Positions 10,302 through 38,900 of a stretch of 48,598 nt of DNA are shown in pieces. Position numbers and translations under genes: made by a program. The notes under the pieces are model-generated. The model did not search any database. It saw only the letters and a list, made by a program, of their open reading frames with translations, and was not told the origin of the DNA. Origin of the DNA: Leptospirales bacterium (GTDB taxonomy: Bacteria; Spirochaetota; Leptospiria; Turneriellales; JAOUFE01); contig JBEQLE010000023.1 in the NCBI GenBank assembly GCA_040326155.1, forward strand, positions 1 through 48,598, read 5' to 3'. Within the stretch, counting starts at the first letter, position 1, and every line of letters begins with the position of its first letter.

Positions 10302-10409
10302 CAATCTCCCTGGCAATACATACATCTTGGATTATTTAAAATATCCTGAGTCTATTAAAAGCCATTATCCTGCCTCAATTTTTTTTTATTATTGTAGACG
10401 CATTGACGA

Positions 10410-15442: not shown

Positions 15443-16198
15443 TTATTTTAGGTTATTTTTCTTTTCCAAAATATCGTTTGCACGATCAGCAAGGTCGATG
15501 TTTATGTATAGATCAATTAACATGTCATAGATCACCTTATCTTCTGGAAATTCTTTAATCAATTCAATATAAATAACCTCAGCTGATTTATATTGTCCGT
15601 ACTCTTCGAACAATACGGCTTTCATCAATCGGCTGGTTTTTGGTGATAACTCTTCGGACTCTATTTCCTTCGTTGATATTTGCAGCGCCTTTTTATCCGA
15701 ATCTGCAAGCTCTTCGTCGGAAGGCGGAGGTTGCTTAGCGCCCGGTTTGCCCCGTAAAGCTCCGACGCGTCCTGTAGTGTTACTTGTATATTCCGCATCA
15801 TCAAACTTGCTTTTAAGCTTTCTCCAGTATTTACCCACCAGGCTTTCTTTCGAATTTTCATTTTTATCTTTAATACGGACCTGGCTGTTTGAAAATATAT
15901 CGAGTCGATTACCATTGGATAATAAAATCACTACTCTGCCGTTTGAGCCCGTTTTGATAGTGTCCCCAGGATAAACTGACTGGCCTGTTTTTACGGGCAC
16001 TTCTCTGGATGATTTTGCTGATTTAATTGTTACGTCTCCCCGATGCTCGATGATCACGGCTTCCTTGTTTGTGTTATCTGCTTTTTTTGCGGCAAACAAC
16101 GCAGATGCCCCCCCGAAATTAAAAATGAAAATAAAAGCGAACAGAACATATGAAATATTATCCGGTTTATTTAATTTAACAAAACAAAATGTTTTCAT
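15443..16198 (-). CDS. Exported/membrane-anchored FecR-like beta domain + C-terminal TPR-like helices
   Basis: N-terminal hydrophobic stretch, then G.V.I...VKTGQSVYPGDTIKTGSNGRVVILLSNG..L.I.SNS (FecR pattern), VGALRG and a helical tail. Confidence 0.75.
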   Translation of the reverse strand: MKTFCFVKLNKPDNISYVLFAFIFIFNFGGASALFAAKKADNTNKEAVIIEHRGDVTIKSAKSSREVPVKTGQSVYPGDTIKTGSNGRVVILLSNGNRLDIFSNSQVRIKDKNENSKESLVGKYWRKLKSKFDDAEYTSNTTGRVGALRGKPGAKQPPPSDEELADSDKKALQISTKEIESEELSPKTSRLMKAVLFEEYGQYKSAEVIYIELIKEFPEDKVIYDMLIDLYINIDLADRANDILEKKNNLK

Positions 16199-18099
16199 AA
16201 TGACTCTCCTTTACTTTCTTCTTTAGATTCATCCTTGTACCCAATAACGGAATGGACGGTAATCTTGTTCGTCTTTCCTTTTACAAATACGGGTTCATGG
16301 GTTTTTACATCGATCAAATCTTTGGTGTCTCGATATATTTCTTCGCTGATTAAAAAATCCGTTTTCAAATCACGCGTGAGTCCTTCGATTCTCGAACTAA
16401 CATTGACGGCGTCCCCGATAATCGTATATTCCATTTGCTTAACGGATCCAATATTGCCCACAAGAGCCTCGCCTTTATGCAGCCCCATACCAATTTTAAT
16501 GGCAGGCAAATTTTCGGACGCTCTTTTTTCATTGAGCTCTTGAAGTTTTTTTCGCATTTCCAGACATGCCCGAACGGCTTTTTCGGAACAATCTTCCATT
16601 TCGACAGGTGCCCCATAAAAAGCCATGATCGCGTCTCCAATATACTTATTAAAGGTACCATGGTATTTAAAAATTACATCCGTCATTTCCGTAAAGTATA
16701 CATTTAGCATTTCAACAACCTCGGCTGGTTGAAGCTTTTCTGACAATGCCGTAAAACCACAGATATCGGAAAAGAAAATCACGACTTCCCGGGTTTGACC
16801 GCCAAGGCTGAGGTCCGAGCCACTTTTCAATATTTTATCGACCACTTCCGGAGCCACATAACGCGAGAACATAGAGCGCATCTGACGCTTTTCTTTGTCC
16901 ACCACACCGAAGTTAAAAACCATGGCCCCTACCCAGCTGAACATAATCGCCAAAGACGGATCGACCATAGCTAAAATAAAATTCCACTTGAGATACAACA
17001 AGATCACGATCAAGTTATAACCGAATACGCCGGTCAGCATCGTGATGATTCCGGCAGTCGGCCTTAAATGGCTTAAGGCAAAGGATGCAGTTATGATGAT
17101 GAATATCAGCAGGACGAAGTTGAACCATGAGGGACTTGAGGTTAAGAAATTCTGCGTATAAATGGTGTTGATTATATTAGCATGAACTTCAATACCATAC
17201 AGGCCGTAAGAATTTTCAAGAGGCGTTAATAATTGATCATGAGACTCTTTAAAAAAAGCCCCAATAAGAATAATCCTGTCTTTATAAATCGCCGGATCAA
17301 GAGGTTTTTCAAGCAAACGATAAAAAGAAACTGTTTCAAAAGATCCCGGTGGGGCATATTGAATCGCCATTGGCTTAGAACGCGTTAGTGGAATTTTGAA
17401 AGAACTGTTTTCAAAACCTGATGAAGATTTTACAAAATCACTCTGTGAATACGCTGACAAAACAGCGACACTAAATGCTTGTTCAGGTCTACCCGACCCG
17501 GTATTCAAAGAAAAATTAAAGGGGTATACCCTGCGCACATAACCATCCTGGTCAATGGGCAGGTTGACATACCCTGTGGAATCCGCATGTCTGCGAAACA
17601 TATCAAGCGGCATGTCGATATAGTCCATAGTATATTCTTCAGTTTCGCGAACTTCAATTTTTGATGGCAGCACGATGCTTGCGGATTTTCCTGAATTTCT
17701 TAAACCTAAAAAAGCATCTCTTAACGCAATGTCTTCTCTTTTATTATATCCCGCATCGCCCAACATGATATCAAGCGCAATGACTTTTGCCCCCGCCGCA
17801 TTTAGATTATGAATTGCTTCGGCAAATATTTGTCTCGGCCAGGGCCAGCGAATATTGATAGCTTCAAAAGATGGGTCATCAATAGCGGCGATTAAAATCG
17901 GAGCCTCCGCCTTCACTGCGTCTGACCCACTTGACAATGAAGCTCTGAGATCTTGTGTCTTCAATTCCAGAATATTAGAAAAAGGGAAAACCATGGTAAT
18001 GATAAAAACTGACACCGCGATTACCCCCGATGCCTTTAGCCATGCTTTTCTTTTACTATTTAATTTATTATTATATTTATTTTTCTGCTTATCTTTCAA
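16195..18099 (-). CDS. CHASE2-domain membrane adenylate cyclase (start re-called to TTG 18099; ORF track gives 18156)
   Basis: IAAIDD, RWPWPR, GAKVIALDI, DQDGYVRR and YGIEVHANII (CHASE2), three TMs, then FSDICGFT, NKYIGDAIM, EYTIIGDAVNVSSRIE. GGAGG lies 5 nt before an in-frame TTG at 18099. Confidence 0.92.
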   Translation of the reverse strand: MKDKQKNKYNNKLNSKRKAWLKASGVIAVSVFIITMVFPFSNILELKTQDLRASLSSGSDAVKAEAPILIAAIDDPSFEAINIRWPWPRQIFAEAIHNLNAAGAKVIALDIMLGDAGYNKREDIALRDAFLGLRNSGKSASIVLPSKIEVRETEEYTMDYIDMPLDMFRRHADSTGYVNLPIDQDGYVRRVYPFNFSLNTGSGRPEQAFSVAVLSAYSQSDFVKSSSGFENSSFKIPLTRSKPMAIQYAPPGSFETVSFYRLLEKPLDPAIYKDRIILIGAFFKESHDQLLTPLENSYGLYGIEVHANIINTIYTQNFLTSSPSWFNFVLLIFIIITASFALSHLRPTAGIITMLTGVFGYNLIVILLYLKWNFILAMVDPSLAIMFSWVGAMVFNFGVVDKEKRQMRSMFSRYVAPEVVDKILKSGSDLSLGGQTREVVIFFSDICGFTALSEKLQPAEVVEMLNVYFTEMTDVIFKYHGTFNKYIGDAIMAFYGAPVEMEDCSEKAVRACLEMRKKLQELNEKRASENLPAIKIGMGLHKGEALVGNIGSVKQMEYTIIGDAVNVSSRIEGLTRDLKTDFLISEEIYRDTKDLIDVKTHEPVFVKGKTNKITVHSVIGYKDESKEESKGESL

Positions 18100-21000
18100 T
18101 TTGTCCTCCGTAAAAAACAAAGGGCGCCCAGTAAAAAGGGTGGTTAAGGGCTTCATCTTTAATAAATTTTCGTTTCATTTTAGAGATGGCTTGAGAATAA
18201 CTTAAATTCTCATTCCAAACCAGATTATACAAACCCGACATAAATTTCATGGTCGAATTATCGGACACTTGCCAGAGTGATACCGAGAGAGAGTTTGCTC
18301 CGGCGATCAGAAAAGCCTGGGTGAGTCCGACCACACCCTCGCCTTCATATACTTTTCCGAGGCCCGTATTACAGGCAGAGAGGTTCACAAAATCCGCTTT
18401 GATCTTCAATTTAGACACTTCTTTCATGGTAAGATAACCGTCATTATTTTTTTTGGATTGTTGGTTCAATGAAAGAACAATGGCCGACAATTCAGGAACT
18501 TCCGGAATTACAATACCATGGGTAGCAAAATGTATAACTTTATATTGAGCCAGCTGACCGTCATCTGATAATTTTTTCACATTGGTTTCAGAAGCATCCT
18601 CTCCGGTAATGATCCTTGTGTCGGGTATAATTTTAGAAATTTGCCGAAGCTCCGCTAACGTACCGGGTAAATCACTCCAAATATCATAGCCCAAATAAGA
18701 ATAGAGGGCACGCGTATTACCTCCAGTATTTGTCAAATGTTCAGCCATCTGACGGATACCGTCCATATTTCCGGTGTTATCGATCTTCGTTTGTTCATTT
18801 TCTTCGACCGGTTCTGTTTGATAAACCGGCGCTCCGAAAGCGATCAAGGTTTTTCTTTTTACTCCATTTTCAGCATCATATTGTCGTTGCTGAATTTGTT
18901 GCATCACGGTTATGGATTGTGCATAATTAATGTCATATTTCTCTACCAGATATTTTCCCTCCTTATCACGCAGTGTTTCAAAGGGAATCGTCCCTAAAAT
19001 TCCATCCGGTATAATACGAATGGACTGAACATTTTCAAGAGCGCCCCCGAATGGCTCAATCCATAGACTATATAAATAAGATGATATTTCATCAAATGCC
19101 TGACGATCAGATCGAGAACGAACCGGCGTAGACAATAAATAACGGTAATAATAAATCATGGTTTCAAAAGGGTCAGCTTGCACGGTCTTTAAGCGGCGTT
19201 TAATCTGACGTGCGTATTTCTCATGAAATTCATTGAGAAAATCCTTATCCGTATAACTAACCGTACTGCGAATTGTTTTCCGGTCTATAAGAATCAAGTG
19301 AAAGACTCCCGGACCCAAAGTCACGACAGAGAGCAAACGATCGGATTTTTTAAGTGTCTTTTGAAACCTGCGAAAAGTATTCGCATCGGGCACAACATTA
19401 GTATCTCCCATTTGTTCCAATAAGTATTTCGCCCTGGAAAGTTCGAGTGCATAAAGGCTTTTCCATAGCTGCCCTTTTTCGAAATAACTAAGCGCCAGGT
19501 CACGATAAACACTTATCTGGTTTGCGAGGTATTCTCTTCTAACGGTGCCCTTTGCCGTTAGTCGTAACTCTTCATGAATTTCAACTGCCTGTGTAAAATA
19601 TTGAATTGCCTTATCATAGTTTTTTAAAAAATAACTTGAATGCCCCAAATTCGATAAAGCAATCGCCTGCCCTTGTTTATCCCCCAGCGATTTCCAGTAT
19701 TGCAATCCGTCCTTGAAATATGTCAGGGCTTTCTTGTGGTTCCCTTGAGTCTGATGTATTAAAGCAATGTTGTTTCGACGTATTGTAATACCGCGCAAGT
19801 TATGAATTTTTGTATCGAGTTTGAGAGCTGCAATGTATAGCTCCAAAGCCTCTTGAAGTTGACCGGATTCCCGATTGGCTTCACCCAGATTGCTTAAAAG
19901 CAAAGCCCTGGTTTTGATGTCTTCGGAACCTGGATCGGAATCTTTATTTTTTGCAATGATATCCAAAAGCTCCAGTGCCTTTGTATAATAGACAATGGAG
20001 TCTTCCGGCTTTCCGGTTTGACGGATTGCCTGGCCCATGTTGTTATAAACCGAGACCAGACTGTCCCGGTAATTATGTTTTTGAAAAATCTTTTCAGCCA
20101 GATTATAATATTCGAGAGATTTTGCATACCATCCCCAGGCCCGGTAAACTTCACCCATACTATTTAAGATATTACCCTCGACCAGTGCATGGTTATTTTT
20201 TTGAGCAATATATTTAGCACGTAAATAAATATCCAGAGCCGTATCAAAACGCGAGAGTCTGGCATTAGCTTGAGCCATATTATGAAGTTGTATGGCCTGG
20301 TTTTCCGTTAAATTTTCTTTTTTAGAAATTAAAAACGCTTTTTCATAATATTCAATCGCTTGCTCATATCGCTCTAAAGAGTATTGTTTGATGCCGATGT
20401 TGTTATATAAATTAGAAAGTTCCTTTTGTTTATCAGGTTTAGAATATAATGGAATCATTTTTTCCATAAGAGAGATGAGTTTTTCAGTATTAAATTCATT
20501 TTGGAAAATATCCGTTAAAAACGAAAAGGAGTCTTCCGCGTTGGATAAATTTCCTTTTTCAATACTCATTTTCAGACTCTCTTCTATGGCCAATGTTGCT
20601 TGTTTTGTTTTACCTGCTGCCTCATAAGCAACACCGGAGTTCAGCAGAACGACAGCGATCTCTTCAAAATAATTTTGGTTCTTATCCGGGTATGGATTTC
20701 GATATAAAAACAAAGATTCCTCAAAAGCTTCGATGGCTTCTTCGTAATTTTTTAAATAATAGTGACGCAGTCCGATTTGGTTTAATATTTCAGCTGATTT
20801 CAATGACTTATCATCATAATAGTATAATAGTTCCTCATAGGCTTCGAGGCTTTTTTGATGCAGGCCGGCTTCACGATATATCCAGGAAAGGCTATCGAAG
20901 TTTGCGATGATATAAGATTCCAGATTCAGGTCTTGATTAATTTTCAGTGACATCTCATAATACATGGCGCCTTTTTCAAAATCTTTGGCAGTTGCGTAGT

Positions 21001-21853
21001 AAAACCCCATCGAGGCGTAAGCAAGAGATTCATCCGGTTTGCTACCGATCTTCTTTGCCATTTCTAATGATTTCTCAAAATGAACCATCGCTTGTTCATG
21101 GTCACCGGTTTCAAAATATATTTTCCCGGCCCAACCATGATACCGAGTCAGATCTGGAGAAGGCCCCGCTCCTGACTTAGAAAGGGTTTCTATGGCTATG
21201 TTAAAATCGGTAAGAGCACTCTCAAGATCATTTAAATAATAACTAGATATGGCCCGCATGGAATAGAGCCATGCCAGTTCATTTTCAGGGCGCTCAGATT
21301 CATGGTTTATGATGGCCGTATGGAATATATCGTAAGAGTCCCGATATTGGCCGGCCATAAACTTCATATACCCCCCATACTCCGTACTTTGAGAGGCTTC
21401 TTTTGTTTTGCCTGCCTCAGCATAGATGGCACCGGATTTTAAATAGTGAATAGCAGCGTCATTATATCGCTGCCGGGCTGCGTATAAATTGGCCAAAGCG
21501 GTGTGAACATTAATCCTGTATTCAACGGATGTAAGCTTTTCGGCCAAATGGAGGGATTTTAGATAGTGCGACTCGGAATCATCAAGTCGCCCTAAATGAA
21601 AAGCAGCGGCCCCTGCCCAAAGTTCGGCCTGCATAACTTTGTCCTCATATTGTTTGCCATTTTGTTGATATATTCGAATGGCCCCAGTGAAACTTTCATA
21701 AGCTGCCTGGAAAGATTCCACTTGATACTGGACGCCACCTTTGTCAAAAAGCTTTTGCGCATCCTCCGGGGTTTCGGCATAAATGTTCGATAATGGCCAA
21801 GATAAGATAAAACATATGAATAAAGAGTATTTTATCATATATTCAAGATGCAT
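18089..21853 (-). CDS. Signal-peptide-bearing TPR-repeat + CHAT (caspase-HetF-like) protease
   Basis: N-terminal signal-like segment and many TPRs, then IIPDGILGTIPFETL, LPGTLAE, IHFATHG (His), LSACNTG (Cys), SLWQVSD and HPFYWAPF. Confidence 0.93.
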   Translation of the reverse strand: MHLEYMIKYSLFICFILSWPLSNIYAETPEDAQKLFDKGGVQYQVESFQAAYESFTGAIRIYQQNGKQYEDKVMQAELWAGAAAFHLGRLDDSESHYLKSLHLAEKLTSVEYRINVHTALANLYAARQRYNDAAIHYLKSGAIYAEAGKTKEASQSTEYGGYMKFMAGQYRDSYDIFHTAIINHESERPENELAWLYSMRAISSYYLNDLESALTDFNIAIETLSKSGAGPSPDLTRYHGWAGKIYFETGDHEQAMVHFEKSLEMAKKIGSKPDESLAYASMGFYYATAKDFEKGAMYYEMSLKINQDLNLESYIIANFDSLSWIYREAGLHQKSLEAYEELLYYYDDKSLKSAEILNQIGLRHYYLKNYEEAIEAFEESLFLYRNPYPDKNQNYFEEIAVVLLNSGVAYEAAGKTKQATLAIEESLKMSIEKGNLSNAEDSFSFLTDIFQNEFNTEKLISLMEKMIPLYSKPDKQKELSNLYNNIGIKQYSLERYEQAIEYYEKAFLISKKENLTENQAIQLHNMAQANARLSRFDTALDIYLRAKYIAQKNNHALVEGNILNSMGEVYRAWGWYAKSLEYYNLAEKIFQKHNYRDSLVSVYNNMGQAIRQTGKPEDSIVYYTKALELLDIIAKNKDSDPGSEDIKTRALLLSNLGEANRESGQLQEALELYIAALKLDTKIHNLRGITIRRNNIALIHQTQGNHKKALTYFKDGLQYWKSLGDKQGQAIALSNLGHSSYFLKNYDKAIQYFTQAVEIHEELRLTAKGTVRREYLANQISVYRDLALSYFEKGQLWKSLYALELSRAKYLLEQMGDTNVVPDANTFRRFQKTLKKSDRLLSVVTLGPGVFHLILIDRKTIRSTVSYTDKDFLNEFHEKYARQIKRRLKTVQADPFETMIYYYRYLLSTPVRSRSDRQAFDEISSYLYSLWIEPFGGALENVQSIRIIPDGILGTIPFETLRDKEGKYLVEKYDINYAQSITVMQQIQQRQYDAENGVKRKTLIAFGAPVYQTEPVEENEQTKIDNTGNMDGIRQMAEHLTNTGGNTRALYSYLGYDIWSDLPGTLAELRQISKIIPDTRIITGEDASETNVKKLSDDGQLAQYKVIHFATHGIVIPEVPELSAIVLSLNQQSKKNNDGYLTMKEVSKLKIKADFVNLSACNTGLGKVYEGEGVVGLTQAFLIAGANSLSVSLWQVSDNSTMKFMSGLYNLVWNENLSYSQAISKMKRKFIKDEALNHPFYWAPFVFYGGQIER

Positions 21854-21897
21854 TCTTTAGCGCATCATGTCAATTAAAGATTTGCGTAAAATCATCA

Positions 21898-22106
21898 GAA
21901 AAACCGTAGGATTTTTTGTGAGTAAAATACCACGAAGCGGGTTTTTAAAAACCACGCTTTTTAAAAACAAATTACTTCAAACTATAATCGAACGAAGCGA
22001 CTTCGTCGAGTTCTCGTGCGAAAAACTCGACAGACCATCGTCCCTTCCGCTTCCGCTATCGGGACTCAAGCCAAAAACCGCAGGATTTTTTTGTGCACTA
22101 AAGGGG
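21898..22106. repeat. Copy A of a non-coding ~107-bp structured repeat (one unit, extra hairpins and a terminal partial unit)
   Basis: Aligns by eye with 28487-28547 and 31078-31295. It contains the hairpin GTTTTTAAAAA-CCACGC-TTTTTAAAAAC (21941-21968), and 22073-22106 is identical to 31262-31295. Confidence 0.9.
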
Positions 22107-22213
22107 CCAAGTCTGCCCCTCGCTCTGGCTTTTCAACTGAAAGAGCCGCCGCTACCCCATACGTTTTATTTTTTACTTGGTTGGTTATTTGAAGTTTTTC
22201 GTTTGATGGTTAA

Positions 22214-22369
22214 TTACACACCGGGGGGTAAATCTTTTTCATAGTGCGGTGTGGGGAGGTCTAGAAATTCGAAGACATAGCTGTCTTTAAAAACACCCGT
22301 GACCTCTTGCGGAAGTTCCTGTACTTGTGTAGATGATGGTTTTGATATCCACCTTCCAGGCCTAATCAT
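22214..22369 (-). pseudogene. yhcG: Internal fragment of YhcG/DUF1016 PD-(D/E)xK nuclease-family gene
   Basis: Manual translation ...ELPQEVTGVFKDSYVFEFLDLPTPHYEKDL matches the family's 'FKD.Y.FEFL.LP....E.DL' motif. Only about 50 codons remain. Confidence 0.65.
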
Positions 22370-22490
22370 TGGCTTTGCGTTTTTTCCACCATTTTTTTAA
22401 ATCGTCAAATTCGGCCAACTGAATGGGCTTTATAGCCGGTGGTTTAATACCGTGAATATTGAAAATAAAAAAAGTGCCGTTCTTTTTATG

Positions 22491-22700
22491 TCACGAATTT
22501 GCTAGTCGCTCGCCCATTGAATCAATTTTTTTTTCTATTTCTTCTATTCTTTCACTAATATACGCAAGTGCCAGAGTACTCACCGGTGTGCCGCATGATG
22601 CACATTGTATAACACCGAATTTATAACTAGAGTCTTTCGGTTCGATTTCTTTCATTTCAAAGGTTGTGTTTTCGCATTTACCGCATGTTGTTGTTGCCAT
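22491..22700 (-). CDS. Small zinc-ribbon + coiled-coil protein (69 aa; start re-called to MATTTC)
   Basis: CGKC...CASCG pairs followed by the heptad-like tail ISERIEEIEKKIDSM. Confidence 0.7.
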   Translation of the reverse strand: MATTTCGKCENTTFEMKEIEPKDSSYKFGVIQCASCGTPVSTLALAYISERIEEIEKKIDSMGERLANS

Positions 22701-22846
22701 AACCACATATATCACTTGAATTTTGTGCGTCAATAGATAATTCCGAAAAAAACAGAAAACATCGTAAGAGTGAAATATCATTCCTTAAATTAGTGCAATC
22801 TGAATAAAAACAATCGCTATTAATAAGTTTTTCAGATACAAAGTGA

Positions 22847-24545
22847 ATGCCGGTTTTGTCATTGACATGTTTTCGAAACGCGTATATTTATCCGGTTAAG
22901 GGTATGTTTCGCTATCTAATTATATTTTTATGTTTGAATGGGATTTTTGGCTTGTTCGGTATTTTAAGTGTGTATGCAGCAGACAAAGGTATACCGGTCA
23001 TATCTGCCGAAGAATTTTCTGAAGAACTTTCTAGAAAATTAGACGCAGATAAATCGTTAGAAAGCGGCATATGCTGGAAAATCCGAAATTATAAAATTAC
23101 TGCTTAAACATGGAGCGAAGCCCCATACGGAAAATATAATTTACCACATTGCATTAAACAATGTGAAAGAGGTAGAAAGGTTATTAAACAATGGACTCGA
23201 TCCGAATTCAACACTCGGAAAGTCATGGATAACTCCCTTAACAAAAGCTGCGCAATGGGGGAGGCTTGAAATAGGCGAATTGCTCATTCGCTATGGCGCG
23301 AAAATATCCAATAGTAAATCAAGTATGAATACGCCCGTTCTTGCAGCGTGTAACAACGGACATGTCGATTTTTTAAAACTTTTAGTAAAAAATGGAGCCA
23401 AATTTTATAACATGGCAAACAATTTGTTTGCCATGTTGGGAGATACCCCGGCTTGTATGGTTTTTGCTGTATGGAAGGGCCATGAAAAAGTGGTTCAATA
23501 TTTAATCGACCGGGGATTGAATTTTGAACACCAAAGAGATTATTTTATTTATATAAAAACGGACAAAGATGGCAAACAAACGTATCATGTGTTCAAGGGT
23601 GATGCTAATGTAAGCGCATTTCATATATTGAAAAATAAATATACCGGTGTAACACGAAAAAGTACAGATAATATGTTAGGCTTAGCCGCACTTTATGGCA
23701 GGTTAAATGTGGTAAAAGTTTTATTAAAAAATGGCGCGACTTGCAAAAAAACCGGGCAATATTATATTACGCCTTTGTTAATTGCAGCTAAAAAAAAGCA
23801 TAAAGATATTGTTACAGCCTTGCTCCCGTATTGCAATGACGTGAATGAAACAGATTGGTATAATAATTCGATGAGGACCGTAGCTGGAAAACTTGGCTGG
23901 ATAGATATTTTAAAACAAATTGAAAGTAAAGAATTTCCAGAACATCGTTATTCACGATATAGCAAAATTTTAATGTATTCATCGCTAGAGTATTTACAAA
24001 AGAAAAATCGTTATAAAAAACTTCGTGAATGTTCCTTATCGATAATGCCGGGGAATCTGGCATTACAAATTGAAAAAAAATCATTATATCCTGTTTATGG
24101 CGCGTTTTCAAAAGACAGGAAGACGATTACATTTTATTTGGATGCGCCCAAAATAGATAGTATTATAAAATCGGATTCTTCTTTACCAGATACGGAAAAC
24201 TTCTTTGATAAAAAATCAAAATTAATTATTAAACCCAGGAACGTAAAATTTGCAAGACTGATTCCTTCTTGCAACAAATTTAAGTATGATAAGTCGGACA
24301 AGGGAGTAAAGTCCACGCTTCTTGCCGGCAACAACAAAAATATTATCCTTACCTATTTTGATAAGCCTGCCATTATTAAGGGGGCCTATACGCAACAAAC
24401 CAATAATATCTATTATTTTGATATCCGGATAAAAAAACCAGGCTTTCATTATCTGTTAGATTCCATACAAGAGGGTCGCCATACCATTAAAAACATAGAA
24501 ATGAATGACTCAGATATTGTTTATTCGATCGTGTCAGTCAATTGA
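22847..24545 (+). pseudogene. Exported ankyrin-repeat protein split by a +1 frameshift near 23060
   Basis: ORF 22847-23107 carries the signal peptide. The frame of ORF 23163-24545 is open from 23061 and reads KAAYAGKSEIIKLLLKHGA (an ankyrin repeat). Further repeats follow: TPLTKAAQWG, TPVLAACNNG, TPLLIAAKK. Confidence 0.75.
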
Positions 24546-24858
24546 AATTAGACTAAAAGTAATATCGTCTTCAAGGCTATCCGCATTCTTGGAATATTCC
24601 AGAATATAATTTGAAATATACTCGCCATGTTGGCGGCAACCTAAATATACACAATTGGGCCAATTGCTCAGCGCTATTTTAAACATTATTTTCCGGCTGT
24701 AATACGAGAAAGGTTTTTATAGCACTCGCGTCTAATTCTACTTTGACCGATTTCCCTGTAAAGACTTTAGCTATATCGGGGTCGGCTTTTATTAATGCGG
24801 TAATATCTTCTTCTTTTTTTACCGTCGATTTTGTTTAGCTCCAGCCATATCTTCCCCC

Positions 24859-24884
24859 ATTTTGTAACATCGATGTTACAAAAT
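24859..24884. repeat. Perfect 26-bp palindrome
   Basis: ATTTTGTAACATCGATGTTACAAAAT is its own reverse complement. Confidence 0.9.
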
Positions 24885-25280
24885 TACTTTAACACCTTTG
24901 TCTCTTTTGTGATAATGTCTTCACTCTCACCTACTGATAATGTATGATCAACGCAACTCATTATATGAGCTATTAATTTTTTTTGTTTGCCCGGTGGCAA
25001 ATTGCTTACTTCTATTTTGTAAATACCGCTTATAATTTTATCCATTTTTGCTGAGCCCAATAAGGTAACATATTCATCGCTGAACAAAACAGGATAATTT
25101 TTTAATGTTTCTTCAATACGGACGTACAAATAGATTGGCGCTATGGGCTATCTTTAAAAAACCACGGGCGACATCGCCCATGCCTTCAAATATATTCTTA
25201 AGCTCAGTTTTAAACTCATCACGATTGATGTCTCCCTCGATATTTTGGATTTTTCGTATTAAATCTTCTTTGCGTATCAT
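24884..25280 (-). pseudogene. Hypothetical gene coupled to the R-M gene, apparently frameshifted near 25130
   Basis: The ATG at 25280 overlaps the R-M stop (TAATG). A 55-aa ORF (MIRKEDLIRK...) stops at 25113 while an overlapping frame (24884-25129) continues. Confidence 0.5.
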
Positions 25281-28200
25281 TATAGATTGTCACCCTCCAC
25301 AATCTTAATCTCTTCGTCCGTTAAATCGTAGAGCTTATATACCAGCAAATCGATCTCTTGATCGGTCGCGGCAATTTGTCGTTCCAACTGTGTTTTATCA
25401 TGCGGGGTATTTGCCTCGGGCAACCGCTTGTTCAGATCGAGCATGCGATCAACCAAAGTGATCATTTGATCGTGTTTAGCTTTGTCGTCGGAATTATCGA
25501 AATCGATGGTGCGGATGGGGAGTTGTTCCATATATTGTTTCTTTAGGCGTAAACGCCCTCCAGAATCAGAATCCCCAAGAACTGCACAAATATTTTTTAG
25601 GCAAAACCAAGCAACTTTTGAATTTAAAATACATAATAGATATTTATCAGGAATTGAAAAAATATACACAGTTGTTGGATAATAAAGCCTACCTGAATCG
25701 AAGGTAGCTCGTGGATTCATTGCAATCTCAGGCCAGACAAGCTTATTGTTTTCGAATTCACCATAATAAGCGCATGACCTTAGCTCCCACCAGTAATCTC
25801 CTTTATCCCATCTTTTTTTACATTTTTCTTCATATTGCTTCAACCAATTGTAAATTTCAGGATACTTGGCTTGTAACCATATTTCAGGTTTCACTTTACC
25901 ACGCTTGACATCAGTAAATCCGGCTGGCAATAATATTAACCATTTATCCACTGTTGGTTGTTTGTACCTATCTATATCTCTACCGAATACAAATGGTTTT
26001 ATTAACTCAGCACTATTTTTATCATTTCGAATTAATTGTTCTTTAATGGAATTATTAATTACAAAACATTCATCGAGAGCTGTTTTAATTCCATAATGTA
26101 TTTTTCCTGCTCCAAATTTACCCAATGGTTCGCCGATCTGTTTGAGTTTGCTCAGTAATTTTGCTTCGCTTTCATTGCTTAAAGACCAACCTTCATCTTC
26201 AAGCGTATTTATCCCAACATGGTATTTTAATTTTTTAACCACTTTATCCAGGGGTGGATTGCCTTCTTTCCCAAGCAGAAGTTTATTTTGTTTAACCACG
26301 TAAAAGTCTTTGGGTTGATCATTTGCAATTTTTAATATACATGTATCGGTTTTAGCACCTTCAAATACTGGCAACTCGCCGAAGTCGATGAGTTCCAGTA
26401 TCCGTTTTTTCTTTAAAAACTTTCGCAGGGCGTCGCCGTAGTTTGCCCGCAGCCATTTGTTGGCTACAATAATGGAATACACCCCTTTAGCTTTTAATAA
26501 CGAAAGACTTTTTTCGATAAAGTATACATACAAATCGGCGGTTCCGGCGTAGGTTTCGAATATATTCTGGGCGTAGGTTTTGAAATCCGGTCCAAGAACT
26601 TCCTGGCGAACATACGGCGGATTCCCAATCACCACATCAAACCCGACATCGTCTCCGGTCATTATACCCGACCACTCACTTTCCCAGTCAAACACATTGA
26701 CCTTCTCTTTTTCATCTTCACTCATACTGGTAAAAAGGTCTTGCTGCTCGCCCTTGCCTGCGGAATTCACAGAGTAAAAGTCGGGCCCAATTAGCGAGTT
26801 ACCGCATTTAATATTATTCTCTAAGTCGGGCAGAGCGCGCTCGTGAAACATCGACAGCTGTGATTCCAACGTTTCGGCAGATTCGTTTTCGAGTACCTTC
26901 AGAAGCAGATTCAACTTTGTGACTTCCACAGCCTGGTTGTCAATGTCGACCCCAAAAATATTATTTAAAAGTATCTTCTTTTTTTCGGACGTTGTCAGTT
27001 GCCACTCTATAATTTCTACTCCATCAGCTGAGTTCGATGAGCCACTTTTGAAAACGGCTTTTTTATATTTGGCAGGATTATTCGCGCTATACCAGTCTCG
27101 GTGCCAGTCGAGCAGATATTGATAGGCAAAAATTAGAAACGAACCGGAACCACAAGCCGGGTCTAGCACCCTTAGTGGAGTTGCATATTTCGCGCTCTCT
27201 CCGGCCACATCTTTAGTGCTCATCTTTTTTAGTTTTTCGCCTAATGTATTTTCAACGATGTATTCGACTATATAACGCGGTGTGTAATAGACACCTCCTG
27301 CCTTTTTGACTTCTGGTTTTTCTTCGACCTTTGCCGATTTACCGGCCAACCGAATTACCTTGCCTAAAAACTGCTCATAGACATTGCCTAAAATATCTGC
27401 CCCAATAACAGAAAATTCATATGGACTGTCAGGGTAGTAGAGTTTCTTTAAAATTCCTTTCAGAATTTTGTCGTCAATACTCAAATTCGGGGTAAGCTCA
27501 TCCGGGTGGGTGCTTCTACCCTTCTCTTTTTCAAAGTGAAACAGACCCGAGTTATACTTTTGGTCGGCCTTATGGTAAAGTTGTTTTAGCTCGCCATAAA
27601 TATCTTTTTTATCGGCAATATGACTAAGTTGTTCATATGGTTCTATGCCCCTGTCTTCACATATACGTAAAAACAAAATTCGGTCAATGGTTACGCCAAC
27701 GGAATAATTTAACGAACGTGTATCGATTTCGTTTCTAAGGGCTATATTTTTTGCTAAATCGAGTCGCCAGTTTTCAATCTCTTTTAAAAATTCCCGGTCA
27801 ACGGTTGTTGTCCCTTTTTTGCCTTTCTTACCACCGGCAAATTTTTCAAAGTAATCTTTTTGAATACCGTCGGGGGAAAATATCGATTGTATCCACTCCC
27901 AATGTTTTTCATACTCTGTGTAGGTACAATAAAAGACACGCGCTACCGAGGCAGCGTCGGTGGGTTTTGGTTTGACCGTAGTATCATAAATAGCGAACTC
28001 TTCAAAATCGGTTAAAACAGACAAAGGGAGATTTGCCGACCATCCATAACGGCGCAGTTGGTAAGCAGGGTCGATATTATCTTTTATTACAATCGAAGGT
28101 TTTTTAGCCTCCACAAAAAATTTGCGGTTTCCGCCAATGCGAAACGAATAGTCCGGAGCCCTGGTCGATACCCCGCTTTTGTTTTTTACTTTTATGGAGT

Positions 28201-28396
28201 CTTCATGAATTACATCTTTATAGGTTTCTGACTTTCCACTTTTGTTAAACACATCCCAACCAAGGGCCTCGAAAAAGGGGTCGAGAAATTCACGCCGTAA
28301 CTGGGTCTCGTTGTATTTTCCCGACTTATAGGCGTCGGCGTGCTCTGAAAATTTACTAATAAGTTGTTGTATTTGATCGGGCAAAGGCATGGTCAT
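25280..28396 (-). CDS. Type IIG restriction-modification fusion (Eco57I/TaqI-C like; REase + N6-adenine MTase + TRD)
   Basis: APDYSF...FVEAKK (PD-(D/E)xK), GVYYTP, VLDPACGSG (motif I), VIGNPPY (motif IV) and a TaqI_C-like tail (LLCILNSK...RLKKQYMEQLPI...IDLLVYKLYDLT). Confidence 0.93.
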   Translation of the reverse strand: MTMPLPDQIQQLISKFSEHADAYKSGKYNETQLRREFLDPFFEALGWDVFNKSGKSETYKDVIHEDSIKVKNKSGVSTRAPDYSFRIGGNRKFFVEAKKPSIVIKDNIDPAYQLRRYGWSANLPLSVLTDFEEFAIYDTTVKPKPTDAASVARVFYCTYTEYEKHWEWIQSIFSPDGIQKDYFEKFAGGKKGKKGTTTVDREFLKEIENWRLDLAKNIALRNEIDTRSLNYSVGVTIDRILFLRICEDRGIEPYEQLSHIADKKDIYGELKQLYHKADQKYNSGLFHFEKEKGRSTHPDELTPNLSIDDKILKGILKKLYYPDSPYEFSVIGADILGNVYEQFLGKVIRLAGKSAKVEEKPEVKKAGGVYYTPRYIVEYIVENTLGEKLKKMSTKDVAGESAKYATPLRVLDPACGSGSFLIFAYQYLLDWHRDWYSANNPAKYKKAVFKSGSSNSADGVEIIEWQLTTSEKKKILLNNIFGVDIDNQAVEVTKLNLLLKVLENESAETLESQLSMFHERALPDLENNIKCGNSLIGPDFYSVNSAGKGEQQDLFTSMSEDEKEKVNVFDWESEWSGIMTGDDVGFDVVIGNPPYVRQEVLGPDFKTYAQNIFETYAGTADLYVYFIEKSLSLLKAKGVYSIIVANKWLRANYGDALRKFLKKKRILELIDFGELPVFEGAKTDTCILKIANDQPKDFYVVKQNKLLLGKEGNPPLDKVVKKLKYHVGINTLEDEGWSLSNESEAKLLSKLKQIGEPLGKFGAGKIHYGIKTALDECFVINNSIKEQLIRNDKNSAELIKPFVFGRDIDRYKQPTVDKWLILLPAGFTDVKRGKVKPEIWLQAKYPEIYNWLKQYEEKCKKRWDKGDYWWELRSCAYYGEFENNKLVWPEIAMNPRATFDSGRLYYPTTVYIFSIPDKYLLCILNSKVAWFCLKNICAVLGDSDSGGRLRLKKQYMEQLPIRTIDFDNSDDKAKHDQMITLVDRMLDLNKRLPEANTPHDKTQLERQIAATDQEIDLLVYKLYDLTDEEIKIVEGDNL

Positions 28397-28486
28397 TTAT
28401 TTCGTATAAAATCAACGGGTCAACCTGCTTTCGACAACGGGGGATAATTACGAATTAATAATAACGAATTCTATCTCTTCACCCCC

Positions 28487-28547
28487 AATCGAATGAAACT
28501 ACATAGAAAAACCGCAGGATTTTTTTGTGAGTAAAATACCACGGAGC
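28487..28547. repeat. Copy B (partial) of the structured repeat
   Basis: AATCGAATGAAACTACATAGAAAAACCGCAGGATTTTTTTGTGAGTAAAATACCACGGAGC matches 31136-31193 and 21898-21938. Confidence 0.88.
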
Positions 28548-28596
28548 AGATGAAAGAGGCTATGGATGAAAAATTGTCGGTTTTCGTATTGCTCAT
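28540..28596 (-). pseudogene. hsdM: Possible 5' stub of a type I R-M methyltransferase gene
   Basis: MSNTKTDNFSSIASFICSV resembles the HsdM N-terminus 'NFS..A.FIWSVADLLRG'. The similarity ends where repeat copy B begins. Only 19 codons. Confidence 0.4.
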
Positions 28597-28812
28597 AGAA
28601 TCGAGCATAGTTCGATCGTAAAAGGCATTGTCAAGATTCTAAAAAATAATCGCAATGTACACATTTCAGTTTAATAATATGAAACGAATGAATTCAAAAT
28701 GGTTCCACAATAGCAGACTCCGGGACCTTATATCTTTCCATGACACTAAATATAGTATTTATTAATTTATCTCATAATTCGCCTAATATTAGTTGCGCAA
28801 TAGCGGTTTGGA

Positions 28813-29502
28813 TTACTTTTTTTGTTTATCCTCAGTATTGTTGTTCACCTGATTTTTTGTAACTTCCTCGAATGCAAATTGCGTTAGCTTAAATATATCT
28901 TTGGCAAGATTATACACTTCGGTGGTTCCGATTTTTGGTTCACCGTTTATCATAGAAAAATTATTTTCTGCATTAATGATTGCATTTTTGATTAAACTCG
29001 GGTGTTTTCTACTATCAAATCCGCCTTCATCCTTAAATACTACAGTATTAACATATTCTTTCCAGGGCTTTGAAATATGTACTTTATCAAATATTGGTAT
29101 TTCATCTTTTTTATGATAGTATAACCATACTTCAAAACACGGATTACTTTGAGCAATTTTCCAATTCTGATGCGTTGCACAATTTTCTCTTAATTCCTCT
29201 ACCTTTTCTCCCCAGGTGTCAGTATCAATAACGAACCAAACATCATCTTCCGTGGTTGGCTTATAAATTGGTGTTTCTGTCTCACTTCCGAATATATCAT
29301 TTTTAGCCTGATCAAATAATCCTGATGGTGAATTATTACTATGCTGACCAGCAGCAACTACTTCAAGTTTTATTTTATGACTAATCCCTCTAAAATATTT
29401 AAAATAAGCTGGCTCCCTTCTACCTCCCTCACAGTAAATAATAATAAGCTTTGCAGTTAGACTTGGCTCCCTCCGTTGAAATTGTCTATTCTTAATTATC
29501 AT
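28813..29502 (-). CDS. rloB: RloB-family (TOPRIM-like) protein
   Basis: IIIYCEG..REPAYF, VWFVIDTD, IAQSNPCFEVWLYYH and TEVYNL motifs; overlaps the upstream ATPase by 11 nt. Confidence 0.88.
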   Translation of the reverse strand: MIIKNRQFQRREPSLTAKLIIIYCEGGRREPAYFKYFRGISHKIKLEVVAAGQHSNNSPSGLFDQAKNDIFGSETETPIYKPTTEDDVWFVIDTDTWGEKVEELRENCATHQNWKIAQSNPCFEVWLYYHKKDEIPIFDKVHISKPWKEYVNTVVFKDEGGFDSRKHPSLIKNAIINAENNFSMINGEPKIGTTEVYNLAKDIFKLTQFAFEEVTKNQVNNNTEDKQKK

Positions 29503-30853
29503 ATTTATGCCAATTTAAATCCTCTAAGTTTGCCAAAAACGGGATTGACCCGTATCGCCCAGCTAAATAACCTCTTCTTATATCTATCGTGGAATGCTCT
29601 TTGTAGTCAGATAATGAATACAAATCGGTCCTTCCTTTATTATCTTTCTCAACAAACCAGATTTCATCTTGCCTAAATAAATCCTGATCCAATAAATTTG
29701 ATTCATGGGTACTAAAAATCAATTGCCCATTAGTATTGTTATCCTTCGAGAATTTATTAACTAATTCTTTAATTAATAAGGGGTGAATGCTTCTTTCTAT
29801 TTCATCTATTATGAAGACTTTATTACCACTAACAACATTTTTAAAAGCTGGAATAAAGTCTAGCAAACGAATAGTCCCATCCGATTCTTCGCCGAGATTA
29901 AAATAGGCTTTGAGATCTTCGCCTCCAGTATGCTCTAATTGAAGTTGCTTTATGAATATTTCTTCATTTTCCCGGACAAGGACTACTTCGTCTCCTGCAT
30001 CACTACGTAAAACGGCCATTCTATCTTTGTCTTTTTCTAATTCTTCAATTAGATTATTTAATTTCTCAGAACCTTCGTCTCCAAAGAACTCTTTAATTTC
30101 ACGTCTCTCGGACTTTATATTACTAATACCCAGATTAAAAGTACACATAATATCTTGAGCGTATTCACGAAACTCTTGATTTATATCTATTTCATGGGCT
30201 ATTGCTGCCGGTCGGTCATCAGGTTTCATGATTTGTAAAGTATTTGCGAACCAATCTAGCGCATGATTAACTTCCTTAAGATCTGGATTATCCAATGTGG
30301 TTAACAGTTTAATAATTGGCTTGTTGTGTTTACTTAAATTTTTCTCTATCACACTTTTTAAGACTAAGTTCTCTTTATCACTCTCAAATTTATCAGAAAA
30401 TTTAATCTGACTTTTCCCACTCTTTAAAATTTTTCTTTCAAACAAAAGTTTATCTTTACCTTTACCCAACTTAGAAATATATAATTCTTCATTAACTACG
30501 ACTTGTTTATCGCCAATTTCTATGGCATAATAGTAAGCTTGCTCTTGTTGGAAAAATTCTACTCCTAAAATAATAGTATTATTGTCAGCATTTGCAAACT
30601 TAAATTTTTGTTTATCAATATTTTTAGGTAGTTGTTCACGGGTAACTATATCCTTTAACATGAGCATAGCATTAATCAAATTGGATTTTCCAGCACCGTT
30701 GGCCCCATAAATCGAAGCTAATTTCAATACTTCAAACCCTTTTTTCACATATTTATGATCACTTAATCTAGTATACCTCGGACTCGGTATCATATTAAAT
30801 TCAACTTCTTTCCCAAAGGATAAAATATTATTGACTGTAAACCTTATTAGCAT
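29492..30853 (-). CDS. RloA-like AAA_21 / abortive-infection ATPase
   Basis: MLIRFTVNNILSF, IYGANGAGKSN (Walker A), EESDGT, FIIDEIERSIHP (Walker B), QLIFSTH, RQDEIWFVEK and YLAGRYGSIP. Confidence 0.92.
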   Translation of the reverse strand: MLIRFTVNNILSFGKEVEFNMIPSPRYTRLSDHKYVKKGFEVLKLASIYGANGAGKSNLINAMLMLKDIVTREQLPKNIDKQKFKFANADNNTIILGVEFFQQEQAYYYAIEIGDKQVVVNEELYISKLGKGKDKLLFERKILKSGKSQIKFSDKFESDKENLVLKSVIEKNLSKHNKPIIKLLTTLDNPDLKEVNHALDWFANTLQIMKPDDRPAAIAHEIDINQEFREYAQDIMCTFNLGISNIKSERREIKEFFGDEGSEKLNNLIEELEKDKDRMAVLRSDAGDEVVLVRENEEIFIKQLQLEHTGGEDLKAYFNLGEESDGTIRLLDFIPAFKNVVSGNKVFIIDEIERSIHPLLIKELVNKFSKDNNTNGQLIFSTHESNLLDQDLFRQDEIWFVEKDNKGRTDLYSLSDYKEHSTIDIRRGYLAGRYGSIPFLANLEDLNWHKYDN

Positions 30854-30855
30854 GA

Positions 30856-30942
30856 CGTGAGATTATCACGCGACAACCCATGCGGTCAAGAATATTTTTA
30901 TTAAACCTAAGACATATCCGATCTTGATGTGATTATTTCACA
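30856..30942 (-). promoter_or_regulatory. Putative promoter with two palindromic operators upstream of the RloA-like gene
   Basis: CGTGA-N5-TCACG (30856-30870) and TGTGA-N5-TCACA (30928-30942). The minus strand has TTGACC (30889-30884), 16 nt, then GATAAT (30867-30862). Confidence 0.5.
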
Positions 30943-31077
30943 AGATTAACTATTCCCTTATTTCAAAAACCGCAACAGCCTCAACAAATTTTATCTACTC
31001 AGTCACGACCTAATAGGGCTACGCACTTCTTGGCACGCCTTCGAATGGCTATTTGCCGCAAAGTGGTAACCGAGATC

Positions 31078-31295
31078 TACCACGAAACAAGTGGCCAAAA
31101 CCACGCTTTTTTTCCGTAAATTACTTTAAACTATAATCGAACGAAGCTACATAGAAAAACCGAAGGATTTTTTTGGAACTAAATTCCACGAAGCCGGTTG
31201 CCAAAAACCACGCTTTTTGGCAACAAATAACTTCAAACGAAAATCGAACTGCTCGACACAAAAAAACCGCAGGATTTTTTTGTGCACTAAAGGGG
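31078..31295. repeat. Copy C: two tandem units (~107-bp period) of the structured repeat
   Basis: CCACGAA recurs at 31080/31186 and AAAAACCG at 31155/31262. Hairpin GTTGCCAAAAA-CCACGC-TTTTTGGCAAC at 31197-31224. Confidence 0.9.
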
Positions 31296-35938: not shown

Positions 35939-38900
35939 ATGGCTGAGAAGAATAATATGGTGAAGGTAAAATTTCTGGTAAAGACGGCCGAATACAACCA
36001 AGGGTTGTTAAATGAAAAGCATGTTCCTATTCACTCCTATTTTTTGTATCTGTTTTGGAAACAAGATGATGAATACAAACTTTTTTTACAAACCGATGAT
36101 AAAAACAAAAAATTAAAAGTTGCGGGAAAACATATTCCGGTTGTAGCCAAACCCGACGTAGCCAATAGTGAACTTTGCGACTATCCGTTTGTAAGGAAAG
36201 AGACTTATTACGGCTGCTTTAGCGGGAAAGAGTTAGACGTCAACGCGCTGAAAACAATCGCAATGACTTCGCCAGAAAGGTTGATTCATATTTACCCAAC
36301 GGGATCAACGTACAAAATTGATCATTCTTTTTTTTATTGGCTGATGAAAGCGGCTGAGTTAGAATCGGATACAAAAACCAGCCATGAAAATATAAACCTC
36401 CTTCTTGAAACTCTGGAAAAGAAAACTGACGTGAATGAAGATGAAAAATGGATTATTGACAACCAATGGTGCACCCTGCCGAACAATCAGTGTTTAGATA
36501 TCAAAAGCGCTCTAACAACGATAAAAAATAAATTATCCAACCCATCGCAAACAATACAGGCAATCTTTGATTCCTCTTTAAATGAAACAATGGCCTGTTA
36601 TAAAACAATCGAGATTGCCCCCACTAGAAAAGCCTGTTCTAAAGATCAAAAATGGTCGGGCGCGATTAGAGAAGGTTTTTCGCATCACATATTAACGAGT
36701 AACCTACGGGCTCATTTGATTGCCCCGACGTTGTCCGATAAAAATACAGTAACAGGCGATTTACTTAAAAGTTTCAGTGACAACAACATATCCAACGATC
36801 TTACAAATCTCTTTTATAAAGACGAAAATAATTCTTCTATTGGTTACGGCAATGTAAATATACTCAACACTCTGACAAAAAGCGCTATACAACAATATGG
36901 AACAAATGATGCGCAATCCGACTCTTTGGATCTTAAACCGCTTGAAAGAAATATTTTTTCTTACGTTGATAGCGTAGCCGAAACAAACAGTTTTCAATAT
37001 GACTGGGACAGTTTTGATAATGCCAAGAGGAAAATACTATTTGAATTCGGTATTGATTTAAATTCTTATAGCAACTTTTTTATATCGTTGTTTCGAGACG
37101 CTCTTGAATGTTTTGAGCAAGCCACACTGCATCATGAAAAAACAGCAAATCGCAAATTCAATATATCCCCTTACAATGTCAAAATAAGCTATTCGGAAAC
37201 CGAAAAATCAGAGACTGGCGCTTATGAACTCATTAGCGCAAGCTCTGTATTGAATATTAAATCGATCATTGAGCATACTACTGAGAATACTACTCTTAAA
37301 AATTCAATTCTTTTTCTAGACGGATATACAAACCAGCATATTTTTGAAAAAAATGAATTTTCAATTCCAAAACAAAAAGAGGAATCTATTTCAGCATCGG
37401 AATTCACTGCCCAAACGCAAGTTGACGATACTGTAAAATTTATCGAACTCATTCCCTTTGATCAAAATCTAGTAACCTACAATTTTTTAAAAAATGAAAC
37501 GGGCAGAAAACGGCAAGATTCAACCATAGTCCCGATATCGGCATGGGAAAAACTCCGGGCAAAACTGGAAACTGAAAATTTTCCGATGTTAACAATGGAC
37601 GCTTTCAAACATATGCGCCTGACAGGCGCAAACCTGGCCATTCCAAAGTTTGAGAGATTTCAATCGTCTACCGGGCAATACGTTGCGCCCGATCTTCAAA
37701 GCGCGACAGACTGGGTCGGCAACCAGGGGGAAACGGGATTTTTTACAAAAAATACTATTAATAGTTTTTATGAAGATTTAAATAATCGGGAATGGAGAAA
37801 TCGAGCAGGAACTTGGCAAGGTTCCGGTAATCAAAATAATTTCCCAGTCTACGATGCGCTTGGTAAATTTGTCAGCAACAAACTGATTTCAATAAAAGCC
37901 TCTGGTGGCGGGGCGAGCGACAACCAGAACAAGCAGAGGGATGTGAGAAGGAGGTATTGGGAAACAGGTTTTAAAAAGACTTTTGGGGGACACAGTAATC
38001 CCAGGCATAAAAATTATAGAAATTTCAATAATGTCGCAATACAGCCAGACAATCTTAATACGAACAGAGCAGATGCAATTTATAGATCTTATTTAGCGAT
38101 TAACAGTGATGATGTAGCTTCCTTTCGAGAAAACCTTAAGAATTCCGCAGACGCAAATATCTTTAACAGACAGATATCCGGGGTAAACGACCTGGGTAAT
38201 AGGGCGGTAAAACACAAGCTCATGTACGAATTTTTCAATATTATTCTCGAAAAAGAAAATATTAAATTGAATGGCGTTCGTATCCCAACTCTAGAGGCTT
38301 TATTCGCACAACCTTCAGGTACGAACATCAATTCCGTTACCGAAAAATTAAAAACGATTTTAGCGAAACGAATCATCAGCAATGGCAGAACAAACGCCGA
38401 AGTTCGTAACAGTATTCATGCGAGAATTGGTACGGGGAGATTAGGACGTTTACAACCATACCAATACAACTACGTGACATCCGAGTATATTTATGTAAAA
38501 AGCCAGGCATCGACTATCAAAGCTTCTTTAAAATCTGCAGGAAGAAACGCAGCCTACGGATCCATTTTTACTACCATATTGAGTGGTCATAAACTATTGA
38601 CTAAAGATGGAGAAAACACCGGAGACGATTATTTAAAATTTGGTTCTGACATTGCGCTTGGCATCGTTGGCGACGCCGTATCATCGGCAGGCGAAACAGG
38701 AGTTCTTTCGCGCGGGCTTGTTCAAGGAACCGGGATTATAAAGACGTTTGGACGAACCGTCGGAAAATCTTTCACAAGTGGTTTAGCAGCGCCTATTGTG
38801 GAAGTCGGAACTATGTTGTTCGAAGATCATTATTTAAATACGAAAGATTATAGTTATACGGATTACTCCGCAAAAGGTACCAGAGCGGCCGTTGGAGGAA

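Follow-up and report, generated by a model that had tools for sequence, protein, structure and literature searches.

A mosaic hairpin repeat with compensatory covariation in a spirochaete genome, possibly a REP/BIME-like element folding as single-stranded DNA

The stretch analyzed here is a 48,598-nt contig (JBEQLE010000023.1, contig C87 of Leptospirales bacterium assembly GCA_040326155.1), which in its whole length is called the window, and the element in question is a non-coding repeat of about 107 bp lying between positions 21896 and 31291 of it. The repeat was found to belong to a large intergenic family of modular hairpin units, the stems of which have changed on both sides with pairing kept. 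The explanation that we favor, at a probability of roughly one half, is that the family is a lineage-specific, non-coding, modular mosaic DNA repeat similar to repetitive extragenic palindromes (REP) and bacterial interspersed mosaic elements (BIME), which would fold as single-stranded DNA (ssDNA) and be reshuffled by recombination between copies.

A sequence-only reading of the window had described two hairpins, at 21941-21968 (copy A) and 31197-31224 (copy C), and both are exactly as claimed: each is a perfect 11-bp stem with an identical 6-nt loop, and the two stems differ at three adjacent pairs, each change being compensated. In a repeat search, loci A and C gave a 97-nt match of 82% identity and a tandem period of 107 nt was returned (31092/31199). 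Partial copies are present at 22053-22101 and 28487-28535, so that the description of a ~107-bp unit occurring singly, partially and in tandem was accurate. A second mini-hairpin had also been reported; it is present, but is merely the tip of a 12-pair hairpin, H2, with one bulged A (31257-31284 in copy C). The units were further said to lie always in the same orientation. This is true of the window, where all are on the + strand, but not of the whole genome, where units lie on both contig strands and in every orientation to the flanking genes.

A complete unit is about 110 nt long and consists of two homologous halves, each with a conserved leader followed by a 12-pair A/T-tract hairpin of 28 nt (H1 and H2, respectively). 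Half 1 is leader 1 (consensus AATACCACGAAGC) followed by H1, which is built of six variable outer pairs, five fixed A-T pairs and one C-G pair closing a 3-nt tip. A conserved A/T-rich linker separates the halves. Half 2 is leader 2 (ATCGAACGAAGC) followed by H2, in which the outer pairs vary; H2 further contains a run of A-T pairs, the bulged A and a CC-GNA-GG tip. The 3' end of the unit is a short tail, ACTAAA. Each leader contains a C-GNA-G mini-hairpin. Units are found singly, as halves, or head-to-tail with a period of 107-112 nt, and the variants comprise units without H2, runs of half H2 with a period of ~28 nt, and units carrying an optional module X. This module, of ~71 nt and with its own covarying hairpin, interrupts H1 or H2 where the outer 5' arm meets the A-run, and about a dozen related copies of it are found in the genome, including that in copy A. 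The features of the window are as follows.

21896..21920, + strand: H2-type hairpin standing alone immediately upstream of copy A, with A-run, CC-GTA-GG tip and T-run, read in the sequence and by match to the repeat family.
21925..21940, + strand: leader 1 of copy A, with a C-GAA-G mini-hairpin at 21933-21937 (closing-pair covariation; GNA in 61/63 copies).
21941..21968, + strand: H1 of copy A, the hairpin A of the sequence-only reading, 11 pairs and a 6-nt loop.
21960..21988, + strand: sigma-70-like promoter match, the −35 of which falls within the 3' arm of H1; the −10, at 21983-21988, is perfect (10/12, a match to the consensus only).
21987..22001, + strand: leader 2 of copy A, with a C-GAA-G mini-hairpin at 21993-21997.
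22002..22072, + strand: module X (~71 nt), which splits H2 of copy A and has a covarying hairpin of its own at 22005-22031.
22073..22102, + strand: H2 of copy A from its tip through the 3' arm, and then the tail.
28487..28536, + strand: half unit made up of leader 2 and H2, which is intact (28502-28529); upstream, at 28443-28486, lies a decayed H1 half (43.6 bits, H1 pairs broken).
31075..31183, + strand: unit B, first of the tandem pair, with a degenerate H1 (31091-31117) and H2 (31150-31176) (92.9 bits).
31181..31291, + strand: unit C, full, with leader 1, H1 (31197-31224, the hairpin C of the sequence-only reading), linker, leader 2, H2 (31257-31284) and tail (121.3 bits, every pair standard).

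Further copies of module X were located at loci L049 and L052 and on contigs C101, C113, C171, C33, C120, C115 and C92, and two more distant ones (C84, C100) lie outside any unit. A small GC-rich hairpin (GGGGC...GCCCC) follows the tail of some units (window 22102-22125; C155 ~10518-10535) and may be a further module. At C161:7981-8449 (L053), four to five half-H2 pieces, each consisting of loop and 3' arm without a 5' partner, recur with a period of ~28 nt and resemble products of slippage.

The assembly that holds the family comprises 4.26 Mb in 171 contigs and is 94.66% complete, with a G+C content of 39.6%. Its GyrB is at most 62% identical to any in the species collection, the best matches being a Spirochaetia metagenome-assembled genome and a Leptospira species, and the one sequencing run found to contain part of the region is a marine DNA metagenome (0.06 share of words), with no RNA run among the matches listed; the host is read as an uncultured, deep-branching marine spirochaete. 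A genome-wide BLAST search with one unit, a check that the sequence-only reading had named, gave 65 matches in the host's own genome. With an nhmmer profile, based on sequence only and seeded with 30 copies, 113 matches were obtained, 71 of them near full length, which form 83 arrays of at most four units on 50 contigs and amount to 0.27% of the genome. A covariance model gave 100 matches at E<=0.01. The arrays are intergenic, as judged from a crude caller of open reading frames (ORFs; 3342 ORFs, 85% coding), and the few overlaps are with gene ends or with short ORFs created by the repeats themselves. The arrays have no uniform orientation to the flanking genes (24 tandem-antisense, 23 divergent, 18 convergent, 11 tandem-sense), the downstream gene being co-oriented with the repeat in 35 of 78 cases; neighboring arrays on one contig were co-oriented in 24 of 33 cases. 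A run of N (assembly gap) was seen inside an array at C108 ~15499-15508, and arrays lie near the contig ends of C53, C116 and C30. The repeats therefore probably break the assembly, and the copy number may be undercounted.

Covariation was measured on two alignments. For the first, 63 of the 68 distinct near-full copies were aligned from sequence only with MAFFT; five shorter variants were omitted, including copy A of the window, in which H2 is split by module X. Over a structure of 24 pairs, 92.0% of the cells were paired, compared with 81.0% in shuffles, and 15 of the 24 pairs changed on both sides (165 cells); none of 500 shuffles reached the observed value on any of five measures, and slid controls paired at 42-62%. 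The copies had been gathered by a profile to which base pairs of the variable stems are invisible, so the way they were selected does not explain the pairing. The second alignment, of 69 matches (68 distinct), was fitted to the model and leans towards structure: 96.7% of the cells were paired and 22 of the 24 pairs showed two-sided change (253 cells), values again reached by none of 500 shuffles. The sequence-only reading had proposed that structure is being maintained, and had named copies lacking covariation as the outcome that would speak against it; both the pairing and the two-sided covariation agree with the proposal, and the further copies do covary.

These changes have accumulated among copies that are old. 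Mean pairwise identity is 0.70, the median between nearest neighbors 0.85 and the maximum between loci 0.92, and in 55 pairs of nearest-neighbor copies the unpaired columns differ at 18.8%. Across the 1285 stem-pair comparisons that these 55 pairs allow, 105 compensated doubles and 38 one-sided wobble changes with pairing kept were counted, together with 50 one-sided breaks and 8 double breaks. Double changes thus numbered 113, while 19 would be expected if the two sides changed independently. Strong conservation across the old copies is also seen in certain unpaired parts, namely the leaders and linker, the bulged A, and the G and A that frame the GNA loops.

It can also be seen that the two strands are not equivalent. 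In helix cells G.T or T.G occurs 35 times and A.C or C.A 13 times (p=0.002), an excess indicating that the strand as written is the favored one. Each unit has three C-GNA-G sites, in which GNA is present in 61, 59 and 60 of the 63 copies, the middle letter being free (A, G, T or C); the tip of H2 is CCGAAGG in 22 of the 63. The pair closing the site in leader 1 is C-G in 46 copies, T-A in 8, T.G in 5 and other in 4, and that in leader 2 is C-G in 52, T.G in 3, T-A in 2 and other in 5; the count of double-changed cells at these closing pairs was reached by none of 500 shuffles. Pairing of leader 1 with the linker, GAAG with CTTY, was considered as well and dropped in favor of the mini-hairpin, as this helix showed 0 double changes, the same as shuffles. 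Judged by their letters, with G and A kept, the middle free and the pair closing as 5'C-G3', the three sites appear to fit the DNA mini-hairpin motif. Hairpins of the GCGNAGC type are described in a review as extraordinarily stable in DNA and their RNA equivalents as considerably less stable; the same review places CCGAAGG in the plasmid priming signal ssiA, and hairpins capped by GGA or GAA in the single-strand promoters of phage N4 (PMC13037366). The stability of such mini-hairpins depends on the closing pair, according to PMC3201870. Because the complement of GNA lacks such a property, the GNA loops also pick the sense strand.

The family was then followed beyond its own genome, by model searches run with the stricter filters of Infernal and by one metagenome contig reached via a neighboring protein. 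The covariance model found nothing in the 40 nearest relatives, of which 3 belong with the host at family level, 30 at order level and 7 at class level, nor in a sample of 150 genomes of the phylum, 7 of which overlap the first set. The metagenome contig (L180) encodes a flagellin 90% identical to the flagellin that adjoins an array in the host, and its intergenic region aligns with that of the host over the GC-rich terminator of the flagellin gene, a full unit (121 bits, in the same antisense orientation) and shared unique sequence. By a count made by eye, 4 of 53 positions are different on the left of the unit and about 18 of 128 on its right (~86-92% identity). Within the unit, leader 1 and the A/T-rich linker are identical, and 2 letters differ in each of the −10-like hexamer, the triplet preceding H2 and the tail. 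H2 differs by two compensated pairs and a free loop letter. H1, however, is replaced entirely, with other outer pairs and another tip, and is again perfectly paired; the subfamily to which it belongs is common in the host genome too. Since the unit sits at the same locus in a relative, the array predates the split of the two organisms. The hairpins would seem to be exchanged as units, most simply via gene conversion between family members. Seven more distant contigs (flagellin identity <=69%) had no unit; the comparison with flagellin as bait covered 8 of the 80 loci returned.

The sequence-only reading had offered, beside a structured RNA, a substrate of ssDNA recombination or of an HUH enzyme. 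For such an enzyme no support was found. In the host's own assembly, 94.66% complete, there was no match to Y1_Tnp (PF01797, the RAYT/IS200 family), the same search being positive in 6 of 14 control genomes, and no TnpB was found. For the integron integrase (TIGR02249), whose cut-off is 265 bits, nothing scored higher than 102.7 bits, and all 14 control genomes gave these sub-threshold hits too. Three IS110-family transposase genes (C161:704-1162, C100:34646-35080 and C104:23977-24417) and two weak DDE fragments are present in the genome, and none adjoins an array, the IS110 genes being far from any. Signs of transposition were sought at the ends of the repeats, the true positions of which are uncertain. 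As to target-site duplications (TSD), the longest word shared by both flanks of 48 arrays averaged 4.48 nt, compared with 4.37 +/- 0.15 in shuffled pairings; as to terminal inverted repeats (TIR), the comparison of the first 25 nt with the reverse complement of the last 25 nt averaged 4.7, with no signal beyond chance. No match to the repeat was found in the plasmid and phage collections. Contigs of 151-236 nt were assembled from the marine metagenome run; they include further copies of the repeat, but no sequence that spans an empty site. In Rfam, which had been suggested for comparison, the window was without a match at the gathering score, and four arrays searched at E<=1 gave one match at chance level (E=0.29).

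According to the reading that we prefer, a REP/BIME-like DNA repeat folding as ssDNA, the favored strand would fold while single-stranded, in replication, recombination or transcription, and the folded form would be what gets recognized or tolerated. Recombination or gene conversion among family members would spread and homogenize the copies and move whole hairpins as cassettes. Local slippage would generate the tandem arrays, and copies losing their pairing would be overwritten or lost. A bolder version, which we consider a long shot, is that the ~100 modules, with GNA mini-hairpins resistant to nucleases and to single-strand-binding protein and with A/T-tract stems, form an ssDNA signal of a new type rather than selfish debris, with selection at each site keeping one strand folded, e.g. 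as priming, fork-restart or hairpin-promoter sites, or are substrates of a hairpin-swapping recombinase outside the HUH class.

Several observations weigh against the preferred reading. No dedicated enzyme was identified in the host's own genome, and as neither TSD nor TIR gave a signal and near-identical dispersed copies are absent, active transposition is unsupported. The comparison with a relative is one locus. The excess of G.T could stem from mutation bias, and the bias with respect to replication strand is weak, the sense strand lying on the C-rich strand in 54 arrays versus 29 that have it on the other (by contig 29 versus 16 with 5 ties, p=0.07). As RNA, copy C folds at −34.0 kcal/mol in antisense and −27.2 kcal/mol in sense; since the antisense RNA folds at least as well as the sense, energy alone cannot choose the strand. 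The preference for ssDNA over RNA leans on loop chemistry and on the mixed orientation to genes rather than on experiment. In addition, a promoter-like match recurs at one fixed, sense-only place of the unit. Among 65 copies, 56 retain both A2 and T6 of the −10, 34 have a best −35 with at least 4 of 6 letters, and 22 reach at least 9/12 over the whole match, while no other promoter-like offset recurs on either strand.

Such a match suits an alternative that we regard as possible but on balance unlikely, in which the repeats are a structured RNA family made from their own promoter (the −10 before leader 2) or by read-through, and act as small RNAs, transcript-end stabilizers or protein-binding decoys. 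The −10-like hexamer keeps its key letters in both genomes at the shared locus, the sense RNA of copy C folds with z=−3.9, and the covariation, with G.U pairs included, favors one strand, all of which speaks for an RNA. A transcript from the internal promoter would, however, omit H1, the stem with the most covariation, and the ~100 copies lie in every orientation to genes, the downstream gene being co-oriented in fewer than half of the cases counted above. Rfam holds no match, and triloops of GNA closed by C-G are a motif of DNA stability. Nor do the hairpins look like intrinsic terminators: the T-runs are inside the stems and in H2 there is no GC-rich stem with a free U-run behind it, the terminator scan flags neither a well-formed H1 nor any H2, its single hit within a unit being a 5-pair minus-strand stem in the degenerate H1 of unit B (31104-31091), and a canonical GC-rich terminator already stands between the flagellin gene and the repeat. 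More doubtful is the view that the units are functionless palindromes, the pairing of which is kept by intra-strand template switching and gene conversion without selection on the fold. It would account for the excess of doubles over singles even between the closest copies, for the swap of an entire hairpin at the shared locus and for the lack of an enzyme; but the unpaired motifs are strongly conserved, and template switching alone predicts neither the asymmetry of G.T over A.C nor covariation at a single pair closing a 3-nt loop.

That the repeats serve a known single-strand recombination system, as attC sites of an integron or as REP or REPIN (doublets of REP) serviced by the HUH-type RAYT transposase, seems improbable. 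In form they are alike, with imperfect palindromes, extrahelical bases, variable stems and conserved flanks, but the enzyme searches described above were negative or below cut-off, the conserved flank has no GTAG or CGTC tag, the units stand head-to-tail and not as inverted doublets, and 83 loci spread over 50 contigs are not one cassette array. In this respect the sequence-only reading, which did not recognize the unit as attC, a known REP or CRISPR, was correct, as there is no integron integrase above the cut-off and no tag, and the whole 107-nt period is conserved. A decayed protein-coding repeat can practically be dismissed. Spurious ORFs do overlap some copies, e.g. at 21867-22244, but that ORF has no Pfam match, variation tracks base-pairing and not codons, and, with at least one stop in all six frames of the tandem pair and unit lengths of 106-115 nt that follow no triplet rule, the repeat is not coding.

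The surroundings of the arrays are varied. In the window, copy A is flanked by genes for a 1254-aa protein with tetratricopeptide repeats and a CHAT domain (18089-21853, −) and a 460-aa ankyrin-repeat protein (23163-24545, +). A type IIG restriction-modification enzyme (25280-28396, −; PADLOC REase_MTase_IIG, E=4e-217) and an AbiLii/AbiLi pair (RloB + AAA_21; 28813-29502, −, and 29492-30853, −) are each bracketed by repeat units in direct orientation. The possibility that the repeats mark defence islands was examined and dropped: contig C108 carries seven arrays among core genes, including BamA-type, flagellin and principal sigma factor (sigma-70) genes, and the family is therefore not defence-specific. 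Elsewhere, the genes enclosed by arrays, whether these point in opposite or equal directions, are ordinary and no transposases (ferredoxin, DAO oxidoreductase, esterase and two without matches). At C80:47777-47849 (L080:1420-1492), a tRNA-Ala(GGC) gene lies between a solo half unit and a two-unit array. Further away in the window, a dense cluster of seven genes (1114-15382) encodes hybrid histidine kinases and response regulators, and two very large ORFs of 1141 and 2663 aa (35939-39364, +, and 39399-47390, +) have no NCBIfam match at E<=1e-10.

Among known systems, the REP/BIME/REPIN group of enterobacteria and pseudomonads is the closest in form, being high-copy extragenic imperfect palindromes of ~28 nt with conserved linkers, in mosaic and tandem clusters. 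H1 and H2, of 28 nt each and in high copy number, fall within the 20-40 bp by which REP palindromes are defined. The architecture of BIME is found here, with palindromes plus leaders, linker, tail and module X in variable combinations and clusters. The criterion for a REP in PMC3733652 is a palindrome with a GTAG or CGTC tag, left unpaired, at one of its ends; in the present repeat the conserved flank (63-copy consensus) ends instead in CGAAGC, itself a mini-hairpin. The stems are rich in A/T tracts rather than GC-rich and the caps are GNA triloops, the hairpins point the same way and form neither alternating nor inverted doublets as in REPIN and BIME, and the RAYT gene of the REPIN-RAYT system was not found. 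Miniature transposable elements with inverted repeats (MITEs; Correia/NEMIS, and ERIC/IRU, the enterobacterial repetitive intergenic consensus or intergenic repeat unit) and the BOX elements of pneumococci are likewise ~100 nt long, intergenic and dispersed, and the optional or repeated middle module resembles that of BOX. In contrast to MITEs, neither a TIR nor a TSD signal was seen here, and the search turned up no insertion sequence as a parent. With attC it shares a structure conserved more than the sequence, and bulged bases, but there is no IntI gene and no cassette array, the copies being dispersed among core genes; with respect to CRISPR, the full period is conserved, with no unique spacers and at most four units per array. 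The H2 tip CC-GNA-GG and the two leader C-GNA-G motifs are like the DNA mini-hairpins of ssiA and the N4 promoters. Those, however, occur as single functional sites, in origins and promoters of phages or plasmids, and here the motif occurs ~300 times in chromosomal intergenic repeats.

PMC3116915 and PMC3733652 describe REPIN hairpins as kept by compensatory changes and the REP-type form as thought to fold in ssDNA or mRNA. As compensatory change in REPIN is thus already on record (PMC3116915), the present repeat is of a known kind, and not a singular structured RNA; it belongs with the dispersed mosaic hairpin repeats, which are common. What stands out in it is a GNA-capped design that comes without a RAYT gene. 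Practically, such repeats break assemblies and can pass for riboswitches or small RNAs. Clean compensatory covariation is usually taken to reveal a functional RNA, but dispersed DNA repeats can show it too, and in this case it is paired with signs of folded ssDNA, namely the GNA mini-hairpin caps and the lack of a tie to transcription direction. The shared locus adds one direct comparison in which a hairpin has been exchanged as a unit with the flanks unmoved. Taken together, the above results would extend the REP/BIME-like repeats to a spirochaete lineage and to a design that goes without RAYT.

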